From assembly GCF_016026235.1 (NCBI RefSeq), contig NZ_CP065613.1: DNA of 64,000 nt. The stretch is one strand, 5' to 3'. Shown piece by piece: positions 15,333 through 36,207 of the stretch. Position 1 is the stretch's first letter; every line of letters starts with the position of its first letter. The position numbers were made by a program, and so were the translations under genes. Source of the stretch: Escherichia coli (GTDB lineage: Bacteria; Pseudomonadota; Gammaproteobacteria; Enterobacterales; Enterobacteriaceae). The notes under the pieces were generated by a model. It was not told the DNA's origin, made no database searches, and saw only the letters and a list, made by a program, of their open reading frames with translations.

Positions 15333-17228
<1,896 letters not shown>

Positions 17229-26998: not shown

Positions 26999-27002
26999 AA
27001 TA

Positions 27003-27203
27003 TCAGTGTTCTAATTCAAGTTCTCTGGTTTGCATCATCTGTTGGCAATACCAGGCATAACGTGCGCAAAACCAGGTTCTATGTTCTTCATCCATGTTAC
27101 CAGTAACGGCCAGAATATCGACCGGGCGACCTTCTGCGTGCATTCTGGCAAAACTACGCGCCAGGAAATCGAAATTATTTAAAGAATTAAGACTATGATC
27201 CAT
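27003..27203 (-). CDS. glgS: glycogen synthesis / surface composition regulator GlgS
   Basis: 66-aa [18 protein letters not shown]... (ORF track starts 2 codons earlier). Confidence 0.9.
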
Positions 27204-27471
27204 AAGCACATCCTCCGGTTATCGCATACCTTTTAAGGCCATATGCTTTTTCTGATTTCAGTATTCCCCAATCAGTGTAGTGCCTTTAAACATAACGTGC
27301 GTAAATATATTGTCCCCGATCACACTTTTTAGTGAAAAATAAAAAACCATATTAAAAGACTTTCTCTTCCAGAACTTCTCTAACGTGTGTTATTATTAAT
27401 AAAGATAAATGTAAGCAAGGAAACTATCCCAAAGTGAATATTGCGTCACTAAATGGACATTGGAGTGACAT

Positions 27472-28101
27472 ATGATTTTATTCGCCGACTATAATACCCC
27501 TTATCTTTTCGCTATTTCCTTTGTACTGTTGATCGGCCTTTTAGAAATTTTTGCGCTTATCTGCGGTCACATGCTCTCCGGTGCTCTTGATGCACATCTT
27601 GACCATTATGATTCCATAACCACAGGTCATATTAGCCAGGCACTTCATTATCTCAATATCGGAAGATTGCCAGCTCTCGTCGTTCTCTGCTTGCTGGCTG
27701 GTTTTTTTGGTCTTATTGGCATCCTGTTGCAGCATGCCTGCATCATGGTCTGGCAATCACCACTGTCGAACCTGTTCGTGGTTCCTGTCAGTTTACTGTT
27801 TACGATTATTGCGGTGCATTATACCGGTAAAATAGTTGCGCCCTGGATTCCACGCGACCATAGTTCAGCTATTACAGAAGAAGAATATATTGGTAGCATG
27901 GCATTAATTACCGGTCATCAAGCCACTTCAGGTAATCCCTGCGAAGGAAAACTCACCGATCAATTTGGCCAAATACATTATTTACTACTGGAGCCTGAAG
28001 AAGGAAAAATTTTCACTAAAGGAGACAAAGTGTTAATTATTTGCCGACTTTCTGCAACGCGATATTTGGCGGAAAACAATCCCTGGCCCCAAATATTGTA
28101 A
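27472..28101 (+). CDS. yqiJ: inner membrane protein YqiJ (DUF1449)
   Basis: 209-aa ORF with multiple TM helices; synteny. Confidence 0.88.
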
Positions 28102-28127
28102 TTTATTAATCAAAAGGAAATTTAATA

Positions 28128-29789
28128 ATGGATGATATTGTTAATTCTGTGCCCTCCTGGATGTTTACCGCGATTATTGCCGTATGCATTCTGTTTATTA
28201 TTGGAATTATTTTCGCCAGGCTCTATCGTCGCGCTTCAGCAGAGCAAGCATTTGTCCGTACCGGCTTAGGGGGGCAAAAAGTGGTAATGAGCGGTGGCGC
28301 AATCGTGATGCCGATCTTTCATGAAATAATCCCCATCAATATGAATACTCTGAAGCTGGAAGTCAGCCGCTCAACCATTGATAGCCTGATTACGAAAGAT
28401 CGTATGCGCGTCGATGTAGTAGTCGCTTTCTTTGTGCGGGTAAAACCTTCAGTAGAAGGGATTGCCACCGCTGCCCAGACGCTGGGGCAACGCACCCTGT
28501 CGCCTGAAGACTTACGTATGTTGGTTGAAGATAAATTTGTCGATGCCCTCCGTGCAACAGCTGCGCAAATGACCATGCATGAGTTACAGGATACCCGCGA
28601 GAACTTCGTGCAGGGAGTACAAAATACCGTAGCTGAAGATCTGTCGAAAAACGGCCTGGAACTGGAAAGCGTTTCACTTACCAACTTTAACCAGACCTCG
28701 AAAGAACATTTCAATCCGAACAATGCCTTTGACGCCGAAGGTTTAACCAAACTGACTCAGGAGACGGAGCGCCGTCGCCGCGAGCGTAACGAAGTTGAAC
28801 AGGATGTAGAAGTTGCGGTGCGTGAGAAAAACCGTGATGCACTTTCGCGCAAGTTGGAGATTGAACAACAAGAAGCGTTTATGACGCTTGAGCAGGAGCA
28901 GCAAGTTAAAACCCGTACCGCTGAACAAAATGCGAAAATTGCTGCTTTTGAAGCTGAACGTCGTCGTGAAGCAGAGCAGACGCGAATTCTGGCTGAACGA
29001 CAGATTCAGGAAACAGAAATCGACCGCGAACAGGCCGTCCGCTCAAGAAAAGTTGAAGCTGAACGTGAAGTTCGCATTAAAGAGATCGAACAGCAGCAGG
29101 TCACCGAAATCGCTAACCAGACGAAATCGATCGCTATTGCCGCCAAATCGGAACAACAGTCCCAGGCAGAAGCGCGTGCTAACCTTGCACTCGCAGAAGC
29201 AGTAAGCGCCCAACAAAACGTAGAAACCACTCGCCAGACAGCCGAAGCCGATCGTGCCAAGCAGGTGGCGCTGATTGCCGCAGCACAGGATGCAGAAACC
29301 AAAGCGGTTGAACTGACCGTGCGGGCGAAAGCAGAAAAAGAAGCCGCAGAGATGCAGGCGGCGGCGATCGTTGAGTTAGCCGAAGCTACGCGTAAAAAAG
29401 GCCTGGCGGAAGCAGAAGCACAACGTGCGCTGAACGATGCTATCAACGTACTTTCTGACGAACAAACCAGCCTTAAATTCAAACTGGCCTTGTTGCAGGC
29501 GCTACCTGCGGTAATAGAGAAATCCGTGGAACCAATGAAGTCCATTGACGGTATCAAGATTATTCAGGTCGATGGTCTGAATCGTGGTGGTACTGCGGGG
29601 GATGCAAACACGGGTAATGTGGGGGGCGGAAACCTGGCGGAACAAGCATTATCAGCCGCACTCTCTTACCGCACACAGGCACCACTGATTGACTCCTTGC
29701 TCAATGAAATTGGCGTTTCAGGCGGCTCACTGGCTGCATTGACTTCACCCTTAACCTCAACAACTCCCGTCGCCGAAAACGTAGAATAA
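28128..29789 (+). CDS. yqiK: flotillin-like SPFH/band-7 protein YqiK
   Basis: 553-aa ORF, N-terminal TM then SPFH domain and long E/A/Q-rich coiled-coil. Confidence 0.9.
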   Translation: MDDIVNSVPSWMFTAIIAVCILFIIGIIFARLYRRASAEQAFVRTGLGGQKVVMSGGAIVMPIFHEIIPINMNTLKLEVSRSTIDSLITKDRMRVDVVVAFFVRVKPSVEGIATAAQTLGQRTLSPEDLRMLVEDKFVDALRATAAQMTMHELQDTRENFVQGVQNTVAEDLSKNGLELESVSLTNFNQTSKEHFNPNNAFDAEGLTKLTQETERRRRERNEVEQDVEVAVREKNRDALSRKLEIEQQEAFMTLEQEQQVKTRTAEQNAKIAAFEAERRREAEQTRILAERQIQETEIDREQAVRSRKVEAEREVRIKEIEQQQVTEIANQTKSIAIAAKSEQQSQAEARANLALAEAVSAQQNVETTRQTAEADRAKQVALIAAAQDAETKAVELTVRAKAEKEAAEMQAAAIVELAEATRKKGLAEAEAQRALNDAINVLSDEQTSLKFKLALLQALPAVIEKSVEPMKSIDGIKIIQVDGLNRGGTAGDANTGNVGGGNLAEQALSAALSYRTQAPLIDSLLNEIGVSGGSLAALTSPLTSTTPVAENVE

Positions 29790-30026
29790 ATTTTCAGCTA
29801 TGAACATCCCTGGCCCAAAAAGCCGAGGATTTTTTATATCTGCGTTCCGATAAAAAGTGCAAATGATCGGGCTGTTGCAGCATTTTGCGTGACCGCTCGG
29901 GGAAGGCAAAACTACCTCAGGGAAAGCGTTGCGCGGGGTCCGGCGCTCATCAACAATCGGGGAGTCAGCAAGGGGCTGAAACGGGAAAGCCCCTCCCGAA
30001 GAAGGGGCCTTGTATAAGGAAAGGGT

Positions 30027-30086
30027 TATGATGAAGCTCGTCATCATACTGATTGTGTTGTTACTCGTAAGTTTCGCAGCTTATTA
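30027..30086 (+). CDS. ibsD: type I toxin IbsD (19-aa hydrophobic peptide)
   Basis: ATGATGAAGCTCGTCATCATACTGATTGTGTTGTTACTCGTAAGTTTCGCAGCTTATTAA = MMKLVIILIVLLLVSFAAY; too short for the ORF track. Confidence 0.8.
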
Positions 30087-30104
30087 ACAGCCAATCAGAG
30101 GGGG

Positions 30105-30113
30105 GAGAAATCC
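30105..30113. repeat. target-site duplication, left copy (agaaatcct)
   Basis: identical 9-mer recurs at 31409-31417 flanking the IS. Confidence 0.7.
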
Positions 30114-31408
30114 TCTGAGGGATCCCCAGAAAATTTAGTAAACCATTATCATATTGGTATACCGTTGCTGTAGAACTTTCAGCCCTGCGTCAAATGACAG
30201 TGTGTTTAGTATGAGTGGAGAATGTCGAATCACATTCTCCGCCAGTTTTAATAACGAGATGACTCGCCTGTGCTTCACTGTATTTGCCTGATATTTATGA
30301 TGTATCCCTTTGTTTTCCAGGCTGAAACCGCTTAACCACATAATGATACTGGCTAATGTTGCGATCAGACTCAATACCGTGACCCGCCCGGATGAATGAC
30401 TGGCACCAAACCGTAGTCCAAATCCCCAGCGAGGATTTTTTTCATCCCTGAAATTTTGCTCAATTTGCATTCTACGGCTGTATAATTTCATTACCTGTTT
30501 TGGCGAGAACTCAGTACTGTTTGTGAAAATAAACCATGGTGATTTCCCGGCAGTACGAGCTTTAGCCGTCACCGATGGTCTGGTTGCTCTTTCCTTCGAG
30601 CGTTTAAATCTACGACCTTTAGGCTTACTTTTATAAAGATAAAAATGCCCTTCATGTTGTGCATTTTTATCTCGACCCAGCAGGCCTTCACCTAAATAAA
30701 TTGCTGTCGTTGATGCTTTTGTGCCTGAGTCCGACACCTTTTCCCAGCCATTACCAACATTGTAATAATGATTGCCCAGTACCCGGCAAATATAGGTCCA
30801 GCCACGGGAGCGGAGCTGTTGGAACCATCGCCCCTGAAAACCGGCATCTGTAATAACAATGACATCAGTCCCGGGGGAAAAGCACTCAGCAAGCGATTCC
30901 AGAAAACGCTCATGTACATCTGCATTCGCTGTCTGTGATGATGGAACGACACAACTCATCAACGGTAAAGAACGCCCGTCACATGCCAGGCTTGCCCGCA
31001 AAAGCTGAAAACGAGAGGCATGATAAGCACTCCAGTCAATGAGTATCACAACACGAGACATTCCCGCGTAATCTTTTGGGTAATTCGCTGAAAAATGGTG
31101 GAAACCTCATTTTGCAAATGTCGATTCCCCAACAGTCGATCCACCCGCTTTATTTTGTTTTTAACTGATGCCGTACCGGTTAAATGACGCCCGATACTGG
31201 TAAGTGTGAGGGAAGCGCCATTTATTACAGCATTAGTTGCGTCAATCAGTGATTTTTGACGGTAAAGATGCAAAGGGGCCAGTATATTGTTAAGGAAATT
31301 TTGGCATAATGAACGTGCAGGCATAGTGGTGATCTCCTTGAAATTGTTAGCACAATCAATTAGATCACATCTCACTATGCCTGTCTTGTTTTCTGGGGAT
31401 TCCTCAGG
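30114..31408 (-). mobile_element. IS10-like insertion sequence (IS4 family), about 1.3 kb
   Basis: terminal inverted repeats CTGAGGGATCCCCAGAAAA / CTGAGGAATCCCCAGAAAA (IS10 ends are CTGA..GATCCCC); 9-bp direct repeats; transposase homologous to IS10 Tnp. Confidence 0.85.
30135..31375 (-). pseudogene. IS10-like DDE transposase split into two ORFs by a frameshift
   Basis: ORF 31375..31046 (LTLTSIGRHLTGTASVKNKIKRVDRLLGNRHL, like IS10 Tnp N-terminus) and ORF 31061..30135 (ILIDWS...VITDAGF...RMQIEQNFRDEK) are in different frames; IS10 Tnp is one 402-aa ORF. Confidence 0.65.
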
Positions 31409-31417
31409 AGAAATCCT
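31409..31417. repeat. target-site duplication, right copy (agaaatcct)
   Basis: matches 30105-30113. Confidence 0.7.
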
Positions 31418-31429
31418 CCCTTACCCTTG

Positions 31430-31465
31430 TTCCTTTACTTTAGGTTGAAAAAAAATCAGCGTCAA
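31430..31465 (-). promoter_or_regulatory. sibD promoter-like element, now separated from the sibD body by the IS
   Basis: minus strand TTGACG - 17 nt - TAAAGT; the equivalent TTGACG - 17 nt - TAGAGT sits upstream of sibE at 31814-31841. Confidence 0.5.
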
Positions 31466-31659
31466 GAAGGTTTCATTAACACATATCCCTAGCCCAAAAA
31501 GCCGGGGATTTTTTATATCTGCGTTCCGCTAAAAGGTGCAAATGCTCAGGACGTTGCAGCGTTTTGCGTGACCGCTCGGGGAAGGCAAAACTGCTTCAGG
31601 GAAAGCGTTGCGCGGGGTCCGGCGCTCATCAACAATCGGGGAGTCAGCAAGGGGCTGAA

Positions 31660-31806
31660 ACGGGAAAGCCCCTCCCGAGGAAGGGGCCTTATAGAAGGAA
31701 AGGGTTATGATGAAGCTCGTCATCATACTGGTTGTGTTGTTACTGTTAAGTTTCCCGACTTACTAACAACTGATCAGAGGGGGGAGAAATCCTCCCTTAC
31801 CCTTGT
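31660..31806 (-). ncRNA. sibE: SibE antitoxin sRNA (antisense to ibsE), apparently intact
   Basis: promoter-like TTGACG/TAGAGT at 31814-31841 on the minus strand; overlaps ibsE; ends approximate. Confidence 0.55.
31707..31766 (+). CDS. ibsE: type I toxin IbsE (19-aa hydrophobic peptide)
   Basis: MMKLVIILVVLLLLSFPTY followed by TAA. Confidence 0.8.
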   Translation: MMKLVIILVVLLLLSFPTY

Positions 31807-31885
31807 TCCTTTACTCTAGGTTGAAAAAACAACAGCGTCAATAGGCCTGCCATGTACGAAGCGAGATCTGTGAACCGCTTTCCGG

Positions 31886-33319
31886 TTAGCCTTTTTTATC
31901 CTGTTGGATCTTCTTGATAATGTTAGTGGTCGAGCAACCGTCTTCAAAGTTGAGCACCAACACTTCGCCGCCGTTGGCCCAGACTTCTTTACTCCCGGCG
32001 ATCTCTTCCGGTTTGTAGTCACCGCCTTTCACCAGCAGGTCTGGCAGGATCCCGGCGATCAGACGCTGCGGCGTGTCTTCTTCAAACGACACTACCCAGT
32101 CGACCGCTTCCAGTGCGCCCAGCACAATCATACGCTGTTCGAGTGGGTTTACCGGGCGGGAATCCCCTTTCAGCCGTTTGGTGGAGGCATCGCTGTTGAC
32201 GGCAACAATCAAGCGGTCACCCAGCTTGCGGGCATTTGCCAGATAAGAGACGTGCCCGGCATGTAGGATATCGAAGACACCGTTGGTCATTACCACTTTT
32301 TCACCACGTTTACGCGCTGCCGCTACAGCCAGCTTCAGTTCCTCTTCGGTCATCACGCCAAAGCCGGTATCTGCGCGTCCACGTACAGCGTTTTCCAGCT
32401 CGATCGGCGAAACCGTGGAGGTTCCCAGTTTGCCGACCACCACGCCAGCCGCCGCATTGGCAAAGAAGCAGGCTTCTTCCAGCGAATTACCCGCTGCCAG
32501 CGTTGCCGCCAGGACGCCAATCACCGTGTCGCCCGCACCGGTAACGTCATACACTTCCTGCGCTTGGGTTGGCATATGCAGCGGCGCTTTACCCGGTTGC
32601 AGCAGCGACATACCCTGTTCGGAACGGGTCACTAACAGAGCCGAGAGTTCGTAATCGGCAATCAGTTTCATGCCGCGCTCAACAATCTCTTCTTCGGACT
32701 TACATTTACCGACAACAGCTTCAAATTCCGAGAGATTCGGCGTTAACAGCGTAGCGCCGCGGTAGCGCTCAAAATCGGTACCTTTTGGATCAATCAGCAC
32801 CGGAACACCCGCTTTACGCGCCAGTTGGATCATCTGCTGTACGCTTGCCAGCGCACCTTTGGCGTAGTCAGAAAGCACCAGCGCGCCAATCGAACTCAGC
32901 GCCTGATTAATCCGCTCGTGCAACGGCTGCGGATCAACACCTTCGAAACCTTCTTCAAAATCCAGACGGATCAGCTGTTGGTTGCGGGAAAGTACCCGTA
33001 ATTTGGTAATGGTCGGATGCGTCGGTACAGAAACGAAGTCGCATTTGACGTTGACGTCGGCCAGAGATTTACTCAGCGCGCGCGCTGCATCGTCAATGCC
33101 CGTCAACCCGACCAGACGTGCATTAGCACCGAGAGAAGCGATATTCATCGCCACGTTAGCCGCGCCGCCCGGGCGTTCTTCGATGGTATTCACTTTAACC
33201 ACGGGCACCGGCGCTTCCGGCGAGATACGGCTGGTGGGACCGTACCAGTAACGATCCAGCATCACATCACCAACCACCATCACTCCTGCTCGTTCAAACT
33301 CTGGCAGCGTTACTTTCAT
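31886..33319 (-). CDS. hldE: bifunctional D-beta-D-heptose 7-phosphate kinase / heptose 1-phosphate adenylyltransferase
   Basis: 477-aa ORF, ribokinase-like N-domain and cytidylyltransferase C-domain. Confidence 0.95.
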
Positions 33320-33366
33320 TCCTGTCTCCTGAGAGATTCAAAATTTGCGCGCGATAATACCATACT

Positions 33367-36207
33367 TCATTCTTCCACCAGCCACTTCTGCCAGCTTGCC
33401 CGCACCAAATCACGCTCTGCGGTGAAGCAATCCTCCGACACATGGCCCGGCAATTCCTGTAATGCCAGATGATGAAGTTCATCGCGAAGCGTCGTGTAAG
33501 CACGGGTCAGCGCCATCGCTTCCTGCTCTTCCATAATGTCGTTTTGCGCCAGCAGTTCCAGAATGCGCACGTTGTCTGACCAGCGCGTTAACTTCGGTTT
33601 TTCATGAGCGTAGCGCAACACCAGATATTGGGTAATAAATTCGATATCGGTAATTCCGCCTTCATCGGCTTTGATATCAAAGCGATCGCGATGTTTATTG
33701 CCGAGATGAGCGCGCATTTTCTCGCGCATTTCCCGCACTTCTGTTTGCAGGGTTTTGCCTTCGCGCGGCAGCGCCATAATCTCACGACGCACCGCGTCAA
33801 AGTGCGCGGTGAGCTGCGGATCGCCGTACACTACACGCGCACGCACCAGCGCCTGATGTTCCCACGTCCAGGCCTCGTTTTTCTGATAATCGGCAAATGC
33901 TTCTGCGGATGTCACCAGCATTCCCGCCGCCCCGGACGGACGCAGTCGAGCATCCACTTCATACAAAATGCCGGAAGAGGTACGCGTACTGAACAGATGC
34001 ATAATGCGTTGCGCCAGACGCAGATAAAACTGCCGCCCGTCGATTTCCCGCTCACCGTCAGTCATCGCATCCATTGGGCAATCATGGAGGAAGATAAGGT
34101 CAAGATCGGAACTGTAGCCTAACTCCCAGCCGCCCAGCTTGCCGTAGCCGACCACTGCAAAACCACGCCCTTCGCGTTCGTTCAGGTGATTCGGCTTACC
34201 GTAGCGGGCAACCATTTGAACCCACGCCTGCTGAACGACGGCATCTATCATGGCTTCCGCCAGCCAGGTTAAGTGATCGCTCACTTTCATCACCGGTAGC
34301 GTACCGGCGATATCCGCTGCGGCGATGCGTAACAGCTGCGCCTGTTTGAACTGACGCAGCGCCTCAAGCTGTTGCTCTTCGTCATCTTCCGGCACGCGCA
34401 GCAAATACTGGCGCAACTCATCGCGGTAGGCATCGGTCGCCGTCGGCTGGTAAAGGGTGTTTGGATCGAGCAATTCATCCAGCAATAATGGATAACGCGC
34501 CAGCTGGCTGGCAATCATCGGCGACGCGGCACACAGAGAAATCAAATGTTTAAGCGCCGCGGGGAATTCACTGAGCAATTCTAAATAGGTGGTGCGGGTA
34601 ACAATCCCCACCAGCAAGGCGGTAATGCGCGACAGCGTAACGGCAGCGTCTTCACGCGCACAGACATCACTTAGCAGATGCGGCATCAGATGGTCGAGCA
34701 CCTGACGTCCTCGCGGCCCGATGGTGCGCTTATCCAGCTCTTTGCGGAAATCGGCAATCAGCGTTAGTACCTGTTTGCGATCGTCCTCGCTAAGATGCGC
34801 CAGCACTGGCGTAGTGTCATCTTCCTGCAACGCATCCTGCCACAGCTCACGCCACTGTTCCGACAGCGACTCTTCCTGAGTTTCACTTTCGTCGTCGCCA
34901 ATCAATTCATTAAACACCCGGCGCACATTGGTCATATGTGCGGTCAGCGCCCCGGTCAGTTGCGGCCAGTCAGCAAAGTCCATCGCCCACGCCAGCCGCG
35001 CACGGTTAAGCTCATCAGAAGGAAGCGTCTGGGTTTGTTCGTCGTTAATGCTTTGCAGCAGGTTTTCCAGACGCCGCAGGAACAGATACGCCACTCGCAA
35101 TTGTTCAGCATCGTTTTCAGAAAGCAGATGCAGCGCGGCAATGACGCTGAGCGTTGGCAGTAAAGAGCGCGACTGCAGCGACGGTTCGCGCCCACCGCGA
35201 ATGAGCTGGAACACCTGAACGATAAATTCAATTTCGCGAATGCCGCCTGCGCCGAGTTTGATATTGTCGGTCAAACCACGTCGACGCACTTCACGGGCAA
35301 TCATCCCTTTCATGTTGCGCAGCGACTGAATCACGCTGAAATCGATGTAACGACGGAAAACAAACGGGCGCAGCATCGCACGCAACTCGTTAGCATAGAC
35401 GCCTTCGCTATCGCCCATAATCCGCGCCTTGACCATCGCGTAACGCTCCCAGTCGCGCCCCTGCTCCTGGTAATAATCTTCCAACGCGGCAAAGCTCAGC
35501 ACCAGCGGGCCACTTTCGCCAAACGGACGCAGTCGCATATCCACGCGATAGACAAAGCCATCCTGCGTTGGTTGATCCAGCACTTTAATCAGCCGCTGCC
35601 CCATGCGGGTAAAAAACTGCGCATTATCCAGTTCCCGGCGTCCACCCTGCGTACAACCATGTTCCGGCCAGGCAAAAATCAGATCGATATCTGAGGAGAA
35701 ATTCAGTTCCCCGCCGCCCAGCTTACCCATGCCTAAAATCAGCAGCGGTTGCGCTTCGCCCTGCGCATTGCACGGCGTTCCCCACTCGCGGCAGCAGGCG
35801 TCATATAGCCAGTCACGCGCCGCAACAATCAGTGTCTCCGCCAGATAGCTGAGCTGCTGCAATATGCTCTCTTCAGTAACCAGTGCCAGCGTTTGCGCCC
35901 AGGCGATACGTACCATAATGCGCCGCCGGAACAGCCGCAGCTCGCGCATTAACCCGGCTTCGTCACTCACATTACTGAGCGCCTCCTGCAACCATGCAAC
36001 GTAATGCTGCCATTCGTCGGCCTGCGGCGGTTGGCTTTCCAGTTCCGTCAGCCACTCTGGATGCGCAATCACGCTGTCCTGCACAAAGTCACTGAAAGTA
36101 AGTACTGACTTCGCCTGCGCGCTAAGTGATTCCTCGGCTAAAGGCTCTGGCAGCCGCTCAACAACGGTCTGCCAGTACTGCTGTAACGGTGAAGAGAGCG
36201 GCTTCAT
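33367..36207 (-). CDS. glnE: glutamine synthetase adenylyltransferase/adenylyl-removing enzyme
   Basis: ORF track 33367..36411; 946-aa product starting [13 protein letters not shown] at the ATG ending at 36207. Confidence 0.93.

Follow-up and report, generated by a model that had tools for sequence, protein, structure and literature searches.

We analyzed a 64,000-nt stretch of Escherichia coli DNA (contig NZ_CP065613.1; hereafter the window) in which sibD, the gene for the antitoxin RNA antisense to the type I toxin gene ibsD, is interrupted by the insertion sequence (IS) ISEc60. The 1,293-bp element lies at 30115-31407, between the sibD promoter and the sibD body, so that the promoter and nucleotides +1 to +23 are physically cut off from the rest of the gene by 1.3 kb. 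We favor, with a probability of roughly 0.55, the reading that this was a target-driven insertion and that it reduced antitoxin supply without abolishing it, with SibD sequence still being transcribed either through the IS or from a promoter that the IS carries.

Structure of the interrupted sibD gene

The sibD promoter occupies 31437-31465 on the minus strand, where the original prediction for this DNA had placed it, with a -35 element TTGACG (31465-31460), a 17-bp spacer, and a -10 element TAAAGT (31442-31437). It is identical to the K-12 promoter, as are all 40 nt upstream of the SibD start. The K-12 RefSeq coordinates of sibD (start ACAAGGG...), together with the published promoter, put SibD +1 at 31430. 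That promoter has been described as the 35 bp upstream of the +1 A, the minimal promoter carrying G-2, A-1, A+1, C+2, and A+3 (PMC12956327, 2026). The published and annotated start is therefore upstream of the IS and not downstream of the insertion point.

Alignment to K-12 and the published start define a 5′ stub, SibD +1 to +23 (ACAAGGGUAAGGGAGGAUUUCUC; 31408-31430, minus strand), that is fused to the right end of the IS. On the other side, the displaced body covers SibD +14 to approximately +145 (29984-30114, minus strand), as identified by Rfam RF00113 and by alignment to K-12 SibD; SibD position n corresponds to window coordinate 30128 - n. The body resumes at +14 (30114) because the target site is duplicated, and it contains TRD1 (30060-30082), TRD2 (30013-30029), and the terminator hairpin near 29984. 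It scores 81.7 bits on the Rfam SIB_RNA model RF00113 (gathering score 56), in an alignment that wrongly places the first 30 positions of the model on the IS end. A second SIB_RNA hit, of 29.5 bits at 31289-31465, comes from the genuine 5′ portion of sibD. The predicted fold of the body is unchanged by the insertion. We also observed that the TRD2-side segment of SibD in the window (29984-30020; CCTTATACAAGG) matches K-12 SibE and not K-12 SibD (CCTTCTGTAAGG). The 3′ segments of the D and E copies are mosaic between strains, and this pattern suggests gene conversion between the tandem sib copies.

The junctions of the element are clean. ISEc60 is bounded by 15-bp inverted repeats (CTGAGGGATCCCCAG and CTGAGGAATCCCCAG; 14/15 positions match) and flanked by two copies of a 10-bp target-site duplication, GAGAAATCCT, at 30105-30114 on the left and at 31408-31417 on the right, the latter corresponding to SibD +23 to +14. 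A 1.3-kb IS with a 9-bp duplication (agaaatcct) had been predicted here; the IS is as described, but the duplication is one base pair longer, a length also found at 9 other ISEc60 sites. When 30115-31417 is removed, the window aligns without gaps over 5.7 kb to E. coli FDAARGOS_943, in which the locus is uninterrupted. The inverted repeats, the 10-bp duplication, and this exact empty site indicate that the insertion is precise and genuine, and we conclude that sibD::ISEc60 is a true transposition event and a fairly recent one. The element begins exactly 27 nt after the ibsD stop codon, as predicted, in the loop of the hairpin GGGAG-AAAUC-CUCCC. At this position, sibD::ISEc60 is private to the window among 5,426 complete E. 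coli genomes. As a side observation, predicted minus-strand RNA folds of 30094-30135 and 31395-31430 have the duplicated target pairing with the neighboring IS end at both junctions (for example, AAAUUUUCUGGGG/CCCUCAGAGGAUUU).

FDAARGOS_943 is the closest complete genome to the window. Over 62.7 kb, one indel and 29 substitutions separate the two; 27 of the substitutions are transitions, a bias that hints at an episode of mismatch-repair deficiency. FDAARGOS_943 carries an ISEc60 copy inside ebgA (4386634-4387824), and the window is uninterrupted at the equivalent position, approximately 61676; the IS differences are thus reciprocal, the window having sibD::ISEc60 and lacking ebgA::ISEc60. The window strain and FDAARGOS_943 are sister strains, and ISEc60 (approximately 36 copies) is active in this lineage now or was so recently.

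The toxin gene itself is intact. The ibsD open reading frame (ORF; 30028-30087, plus strand) encodes 19 aa (MMKLVIILIVLLLVSFAAY) and is the usual allele, IbsD being identical in 10 uninterrupted loci and in FDAARGOS_943. Compared to FDAARGOS_943, ibsD shows no compensating change: its putative promoter, 5′ untranslated region (UTR), Shine-Dalgarno sequence, and ORF are all the same. The expectation that ibsD and its upstream region are untouched holds in this comparison, apart from one single-nucleotide polymorphism (SNP) about 200 nt upstream of the ATG.

The two sib genes form tandem ibsD/sibD and ibsE/sibE repeats bracketed by yqiK (28128-29789, plus strand) and hldE (31886-33319, minus strand); some genomes carry a single ibs/sib copy at this locus. 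With its promoter, sibE spans 31662-31841 on the minus strand (+1 at 31806; -10, 31818-31813; -35, 31841-31836), and the predicted TTGACG-17-TAGAGT promoter downstream of ibsE is indeed present at 31841-31813. Promoter, start, and body of sibE are in one piece, and the gene scores 140.9 bits on SIB_RNA, also well above the gathering score of 56. The sibD gene is not contiguous in this way, being split after +23 by the 1,293-bp IS and the 10-bp duplication. At both copies, a hydrophobic Ibs ORF of 18-19 aa lies fully antisense within Sib, ibsE being located at 31707-31766 (plus strand) within sibE. Both Ibs peptides have exact counterparts among the RefSeq Ibs proteins, and homologous loci carry Pfam PF13956.

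We note that the best sigma-70 match of the region, TTAACA-16-TATGAT (10/12 positions), lies at 31749-31722 on the minus strand, inside the SibE body at approximately +58 to +85. The -10 box of this site corresponds, on the opposite strand, to the conserved Ile-Ile codons of ibs, and sibD carries TTACGA where this promoter-like site in sibE has its -35 box.

ISEc60 and its target preference

We identified the element (transposase on the minus strand) from RefSeq labels, alignment of copies, and hidden Markov model searches. Identical copies in RefSeq are annotated "IS4-like element ISEc60 family transposase," and the window copy shares 99.8% DNA identity with annotated ISEc60 copies. Against a 1,294-bp consensus of 17 other copies it shows three differences, one of which is a 1-nt deletion, and it has a unique SNP at 30194. 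The transposase of an intact ISEc60 copy scores 360.5 bits on NCBIfam NF033591 (cut-off 152) and is 36% identical to that of IS10A/ISVsa5 across 93% of its length; we found no sequence match to it among solved structures. On these sequence comparisons, ISEc60 is an IS4-family relative of IS10 and not IS10 itself. The original label of an IS10-like element is therefore right as to family kinship and wrong as to identity, given the divergent transposase, the 10-bp duplication, and a different target.

The transposase reading frame of the window copy (30135-31324, minus strand) is broken into ORFs of 92 aa (31049-31324) and 308 aa (30135-31061) by a CCCC>CCC deletion near 31062. An exact-protein look-up with the 92-aa fragment found the same deletion in an ISEc60 copy at ampH/iprA in GCA_900449095.1, whereas the 308-aa fragment gave no match. 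The deletion could reflect a recurrent slip, a defective copy mobilized in trans, or a homopolymer sequencing error.

Ten ISEc60 duplications from six genomes (GAGAAATCCT, GGGGAAACCC, GGGATAACCA, GAGAATTCCC, GAGAATTTCC, GAATTATCCC, GGGAACTCGC, GGGTCAAAGC, GAGTGATCCC, and GGAAAATCCC) share the near-palindromic pattern G-R-R-W-W-W-Y-C-C-N. Their flanks are usually CG or GG on the left and C or CG on the right, making these sites the loops of GGGG...CCCC hairpins. When only the non-sib sites are used to build a weight matrix, the two sib hairpins come 8th and 9th out of approximately 125,000 window positions. We therefore propose that ISEc60 is drawn to a near-palindromic 10-bp site of the GRGAAWTCCC type, usually in the loop of such a hairpin. 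The 5′ hairpin of every sib gene offers a site of this type, which would make the sib genes recurrent hot spots for the element. The preferred target also resembles the inner part of the ISEc60 inverted repeat (GGGATCCCC).

Insertions into other sib genes, which recur in a small number of E. coli strains that are invasive or rich in IS elements, are consistent with this proposal. Three isolates of enteroinvasive E. coli (EIEC) O96:H19 from the USA and Thailand, CFSAN029787, RMDEC364, and VL46, carry sibE::ISEc60 at the same position. A sibB-like gene adjoining mdtA is interrupted at the same position in RMDEC332, RMDEC364, and CFSAN029787, the last having two such copies, and three of the six chromosomal ISEc60 copies in CFSAN029787 are in sib genes. 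FDAARGOS_943 likewise has a sibB-like::ISEc60 beside mdtA (419864-420812) at the same hairpin position, here in the opposite orientation; this copy has been cut short by IS66, and ibsB (MMKWIIIVVLLVISFPAY) is intact. These hits occur although full-length ISEc60 is present in only 14 of the 5,426 complete genomes. The mdtA-yegL region of CFSAN029787 (297189-301769) has the order ibsB′-ISEc60-ibsB-ISEc60-ibsA, the two sibB-like genes being hit at the same site with the same duplication, and the mdtA locus of RMDEC364 has the single-copy form expected from recombination between two IS copies arranged in this manner.

The preference extends to another type I toxin family. Two ISEc60 copies inserted in tandem lie in a hairpin immediately 3′ of hokB. 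ISEc60 also lies in the hairpin immediately 3′ of hokC, GGGG(ATCACT)CCCC, which in K-12 is occupied by IS186A (15387-16731). The target of IS186 is GGGG(N6/7)CCCC (PMC5009759). Terminal hairpins of type I toxin genes are thus known landing sites for IS elements, and the mechanism is ordinary; given the sequence pattern of these sites, the insertion in sibD is best regarded as a further hit on a target that ISEc60 prefers.

A metagenome scan for junctions between the IS end and sib returned no hits. The 19-nt ISEc60 terminal sequence occurs at 97 loci in species-representative genomes, mostly in related elements, with hosts including Photorhabdus, Xenorhabdus, Serratia, Kosakonia, Phytobacter, Dryocola, E. 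whittamii, and other Enterobacterales. The flanks at these loci are mostly short CCC..GGG or CGC..GCG palindromes, an observation that bears on host range and not on sib targeting and that points to a wider family of hairpin-targeting IS4 elements.

We considered selection for co-orientation with sib, as four alleles share one orientation, and set the idea aside in view of the opposite-orientation sibB::ISEc60 in FDAARGOS_943. A plus-strand terminator-like hairpin inside ISEc60 would block the opposite orientation, and the near-palindromic target gives little basis for an orientation preference.

Antitoxin supply and competing explanations

The sibD promoter, the transposase gene, and the sibD body share one orientation, with the body downstream of both. 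The transposase gene, which extends to 20 nt from the IS tip, lacks its own terminator, and neither a consensus scan nor a scan for hairpins followed by U-runs detected a compact intrinsic terminator (GC-rich hairpin plus U-run) on the minus strand inside the IS. Given this co-orientation and the lack of a canonical terminator in between, a chimeric antitoxin-bearing RNA running from the sibD promoter through the IS is plausible, and separation need not equal uncoupling. Minus-strand transcripts that cross ISEc60 would stop at the SibD terminator and include the full segment complementary to ibsD. The same SibD segment would be carried by transcripts from a possible outward promoter near the left end of the IS, for which a consensus scan gives the candidate TCTACA-18-GATAAT (30145-30174, minus strand), with a predicted start approximately 20 nt inside that end and directed toward the sibD body. 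IS10 reportedly has an outward promoter at each end, and a gene was kept expressed after IS10 landed between it and its promoter (PMC4574204). Of other IS10-type features, no RNA-OUT homologue was found, SIB_RNA being the only Rfam match in 27000-35000 at E<=1, and the consensus scan gave no plus-strand promoter near the right end of the IS; divergent analogues of RNA-OUT and pOUT are possible.

Published deletions of a related antitoxin suggest that the displaced body could function. SibC lacking its first 29, 41, or 45 nt (30-141, 42-141, and 46-141) still represses ibsC; TRD1 (+46-68) is sufficient by itself, whereas TRD2 (+99-115) depends on stem P1, specifically on its +1-8 strand (PMC2943612). 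Both TRDs and the terminator are present in the displaced SibD body, and we infer that antitoxin function is probably reduced rather than abolished, with any residual derepression of single-copy ibsD being tolerated. The claim that sibD has been uncoupled from its promoter accordingly holds for the physical arrangement and is weaker for function, as the parts are co-oriented with no canonical terminator between them and the TRDs are kept.

Several points weigh against this reading. Both read-through and the outward promoter are deduced from sequence. Some of the transcripts might terminate near 30533-30580, at an irregular 45-nt hairpin with UUUAUUUU after it. The candidate outward promoter has an 18-bp spacer and agrees with the consensus at only 9 of 12 positions; in an 85%-identical relative it is only roughly kept, with conservation no better than that of the surrounding coding sequence. 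In transcripts from the sibD promoter, a fold-back at 31317-31383 (minus strand; RNAfold of 31430-31271), in which CAGGCAUAGUG..GUGAUCU pairs with AGAUCAC..CACUAUGCCUG, is predicted to hide the transposase Shine-Dalgarno sequence and AUG. In IS10, by analogy, transposase translation in read-through transcripts is inhibited by a fold-back structure. A hidden start would leave 1.2 kb of untranslated RNA, which is a likely Rho substrate, and the frameshift of the window copy adds to the Rho risk for the transposase mRNA. Even where transcripts reach the body, the long 5′ extension could alter SibD stability or pairing kinetics. Lastly, the opposite-orientation, IS66-cut sibB::ISEc60 with its intact ibsB implies that co-oriented read-through is unnecessary for survival.

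The same points lend some weight to the alternative that SibD is functionally lost and ibsD derepressed, a state tolerated or even useful at chromosomal copy number, which would make this a natural knock-down allele. We regard this as a tentative explanation, possible but on balance unlikely. Unrepressed Ibs had been expected to be harmful, and at single copy this expectation is weak. A Salmonella strain with a mutated chromosomal sibA promoter and an intact ibsA is viable; its ibsA mRNA is raised and its spread from macrophage to macrophage improved (bioRxiv 10.1101/2025.05.26.656083). Every sib::ISEc60 allele that we found, at least five in natural strains including one with the element in the opposite orientation, has an undamaged ibs ORF of a common type; among them is the truncated sibB::ISEc60 that retains ibsB, and three sib genes have been hit in a single EIEC genome. 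The fold-back, the frameshift, and Rho may also stop read-through. However, E. coli cells without sibC cannot be transformed with an uninduced multicopy ibsC plasmid, and Sib-deficient cells die if the cognate ibs is expressed (Han et al., PMC2943612). Moreover, the Salmonella case is one of ibsA, the gene that is exceptional in E. coli as well, and the co-oriented promoter, transposase gene, and body without a canonical terminator between them argue against a complete loss. We also considered IbsE L4F, found in a sibE::ISEc60 strain, as an attenuating compensation and rejected it: this is the majority allele and is matched exactly in 3,376 genomes.

A different explanation is that the insertion mainly disables the toxin. 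The insertion point falls inside the ibsD mRNA, whose length is given as approximately 163 nt by Han et al. (PMC2943612). ISEc60, entering the hairpin loop 27 nt past the stop codon, splits the hairpin that closes this mRNA and removes its normal 3′ end, so that transcripts might be degraded or poorly translated and the loss of SibD immaterial. For ibsD transcripts now entering the IS, the next stop is likely an 11-bp hairpin followed by CAGTTTTAAT at 30215-30242 (plus strand, antisense to the transposase), the stem of which is kept in the 85%-identical relative; the transcripts would be extended by approximately 130-150 nt, antisense to the transposase mRNA. The hok genes of K-12 that have an IS at their 3′ side offer a parallel: IS186A lies approximately 20 bp from hokC, and in 1999 Pedersen and Gerdes reportedly regarded IS elements approximately 22 bp 3′ of K-12 hok genes as inactivating. 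Against this stand the unchanged ibsD promoter, 5′ UTR, Shine-Dalgarno sequence, and ORF, the lack of any known regulatory role for the ibs 3′ end, and the possibility that a strong new 3′ hairpin stabilizes ibsD mRNA. We consider this explanation improbable.

About as doubtful is the notion that recurrent sib::ISEc60 alleles are selected Sib knock-downs that raise Ibs in enteroinvasive or IS-expanding E. coli. In the Salmonella sibA-promoter mutant, more IbsA lowers ATP and enhances spread between macrophages (bioRxiv 10.1101/2025.05.26.656083). Were this true, two mutations in flanking terminator-like hairpins could be part of the same retuning of ibs. The first hairpin follows yqiK upstream of ibsD (AUCCCUGGC-CCAAAAA-GCCGAGGAU-U6; 29806-29835, plus strand) and has a private G>A at 29826; its paralog upstream of ibsE (31485-31514, plus strand) has a private G>A at 31491. 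Each variant breaks one G-C pair of the stem and costs approximately 6 kcal/mol of predicted stability (-14.9 to -8.3 kcal/mol for 29826; -14.9 to -9.0 kcal/mol for 31491). Both belong to the 29 substitutions relative to FDAARGOS_943; neither occurs in any of the 5,426 complete genomes, and 14/14 other hairpin copies examined are intact. As position 31491 falls within a CCTGG Dcm site, the variant there may reflect a miscalled base.

The original prediction had also raised the possibility that SibE compensates for SibD, which appears highly unlikely. SibD and SibE are approximately 90% identical and share 36 contiguous nt across the ibsD start region, TRD2 (+99 to +115) differs at one position only, and the mosaic 3′ segments noted above would also fit an overlap in function. 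Published repression is nevertheless confined to cognate pairs, ibsA excepted, and SibC with both TRDs mutated fails although approximately 100 nt remain complementary (PMC2943612); within the 23-nt TRD1, SibE and SibD differ at 5 positions. Finally, an assembly artefact or a laboratory-culture change, which the private status of the insertion, the approximately 36 nearly identical copies in the lineage that can mislead assemblers, and the homopolymer-type frameshift might suggest, is very improbable in light of the perfect 10-bp duplication of the usual length and sequence type, the clean junctions, the unique SNP at 30194, and the reciprocal IS differences with the sister genome, which fit ongoing transposition.

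Comparison with known systems

Type I toxin and antitoxin genes overlap and are therefore usually deleted together, which makes clean antitoxin-loss alleles rare. The sibD, sibE, and sibB-like insertions form a small natural allele series, in both orientations, in which an intact ibs gene is cut off from its antitoxin promoter, and for the sibD allele a close relative with the empty site is available. Such a series could show whether Sib is needed at native levels and whether an IS can supply antitoxin transcription. The preference of ISEc60, like that of IS186, makes the terminal hairpins of type I toxins (sib, hokB, and hokC) repeated landing sites; sibD::ISEc60 implies no new kind of system.

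Relative to the K-12 ibsD-sibD/ibsE-sibE locus (RF00113, PF13956), the window has the same yqiK-hldE location, promoter, and SibD start, and Ibs peptides that are identical or nearly so. It differs in the interruption of sibD at +23, the SibE-type TRD2-side segment, and the two private SNPs in the flanking hairpins.

The closest parallels on the toxin side are IS186 and IS150 3′ of K-12 hok genes. There, as at sibD, an IS lies approximately 20-27 bp past a type I toxin ORF, the ORF is intact, and the locus persists naturally. IS186 is, like ISEc60, an IS4-family element with a preference for GGGG...CCCC hairpins, and ISEc60 occupies the same hokC hairpin in another strain. In hok/sok, however, Sok is at the 5′ end and only the 3′ end of the toxin mRNA is affected, whereas Sib overlaps ibs along its entire length, so that the cut in sibD also parts the antitoxin from its promoter.

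With respect to the antitoxin promoter, the arrangement resembles IS10 in Pcat-cat of the pSU8 vectors, where an element of the IS10 type likewise sits approximately 20 nt past the -10 box (PMC4574204). Expression there continues through IS-borne outward promoters, whereas that of ISEc60 is a candidate only. IS10 also produces a 9-bp duplication at a NGCTNAGCN-type target (PMC4574204), compared to the 10-bp duplication and GRGAAWTCCC-type target of ISEc60.

An antitoxin promoter uncoupled from an intact chromosomal toxin gene has engineered precedents with differing outcomes: the Salmonella sibA-promoter mutant is viable, and the inactivation of IsoA1 in Helicobacter pylori is lethal (PMC6733600). 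Those mutants are point substitutions with measured RNA levels, in contrast to sibD, where the promoter is intact and displaced by 1.3 kb.

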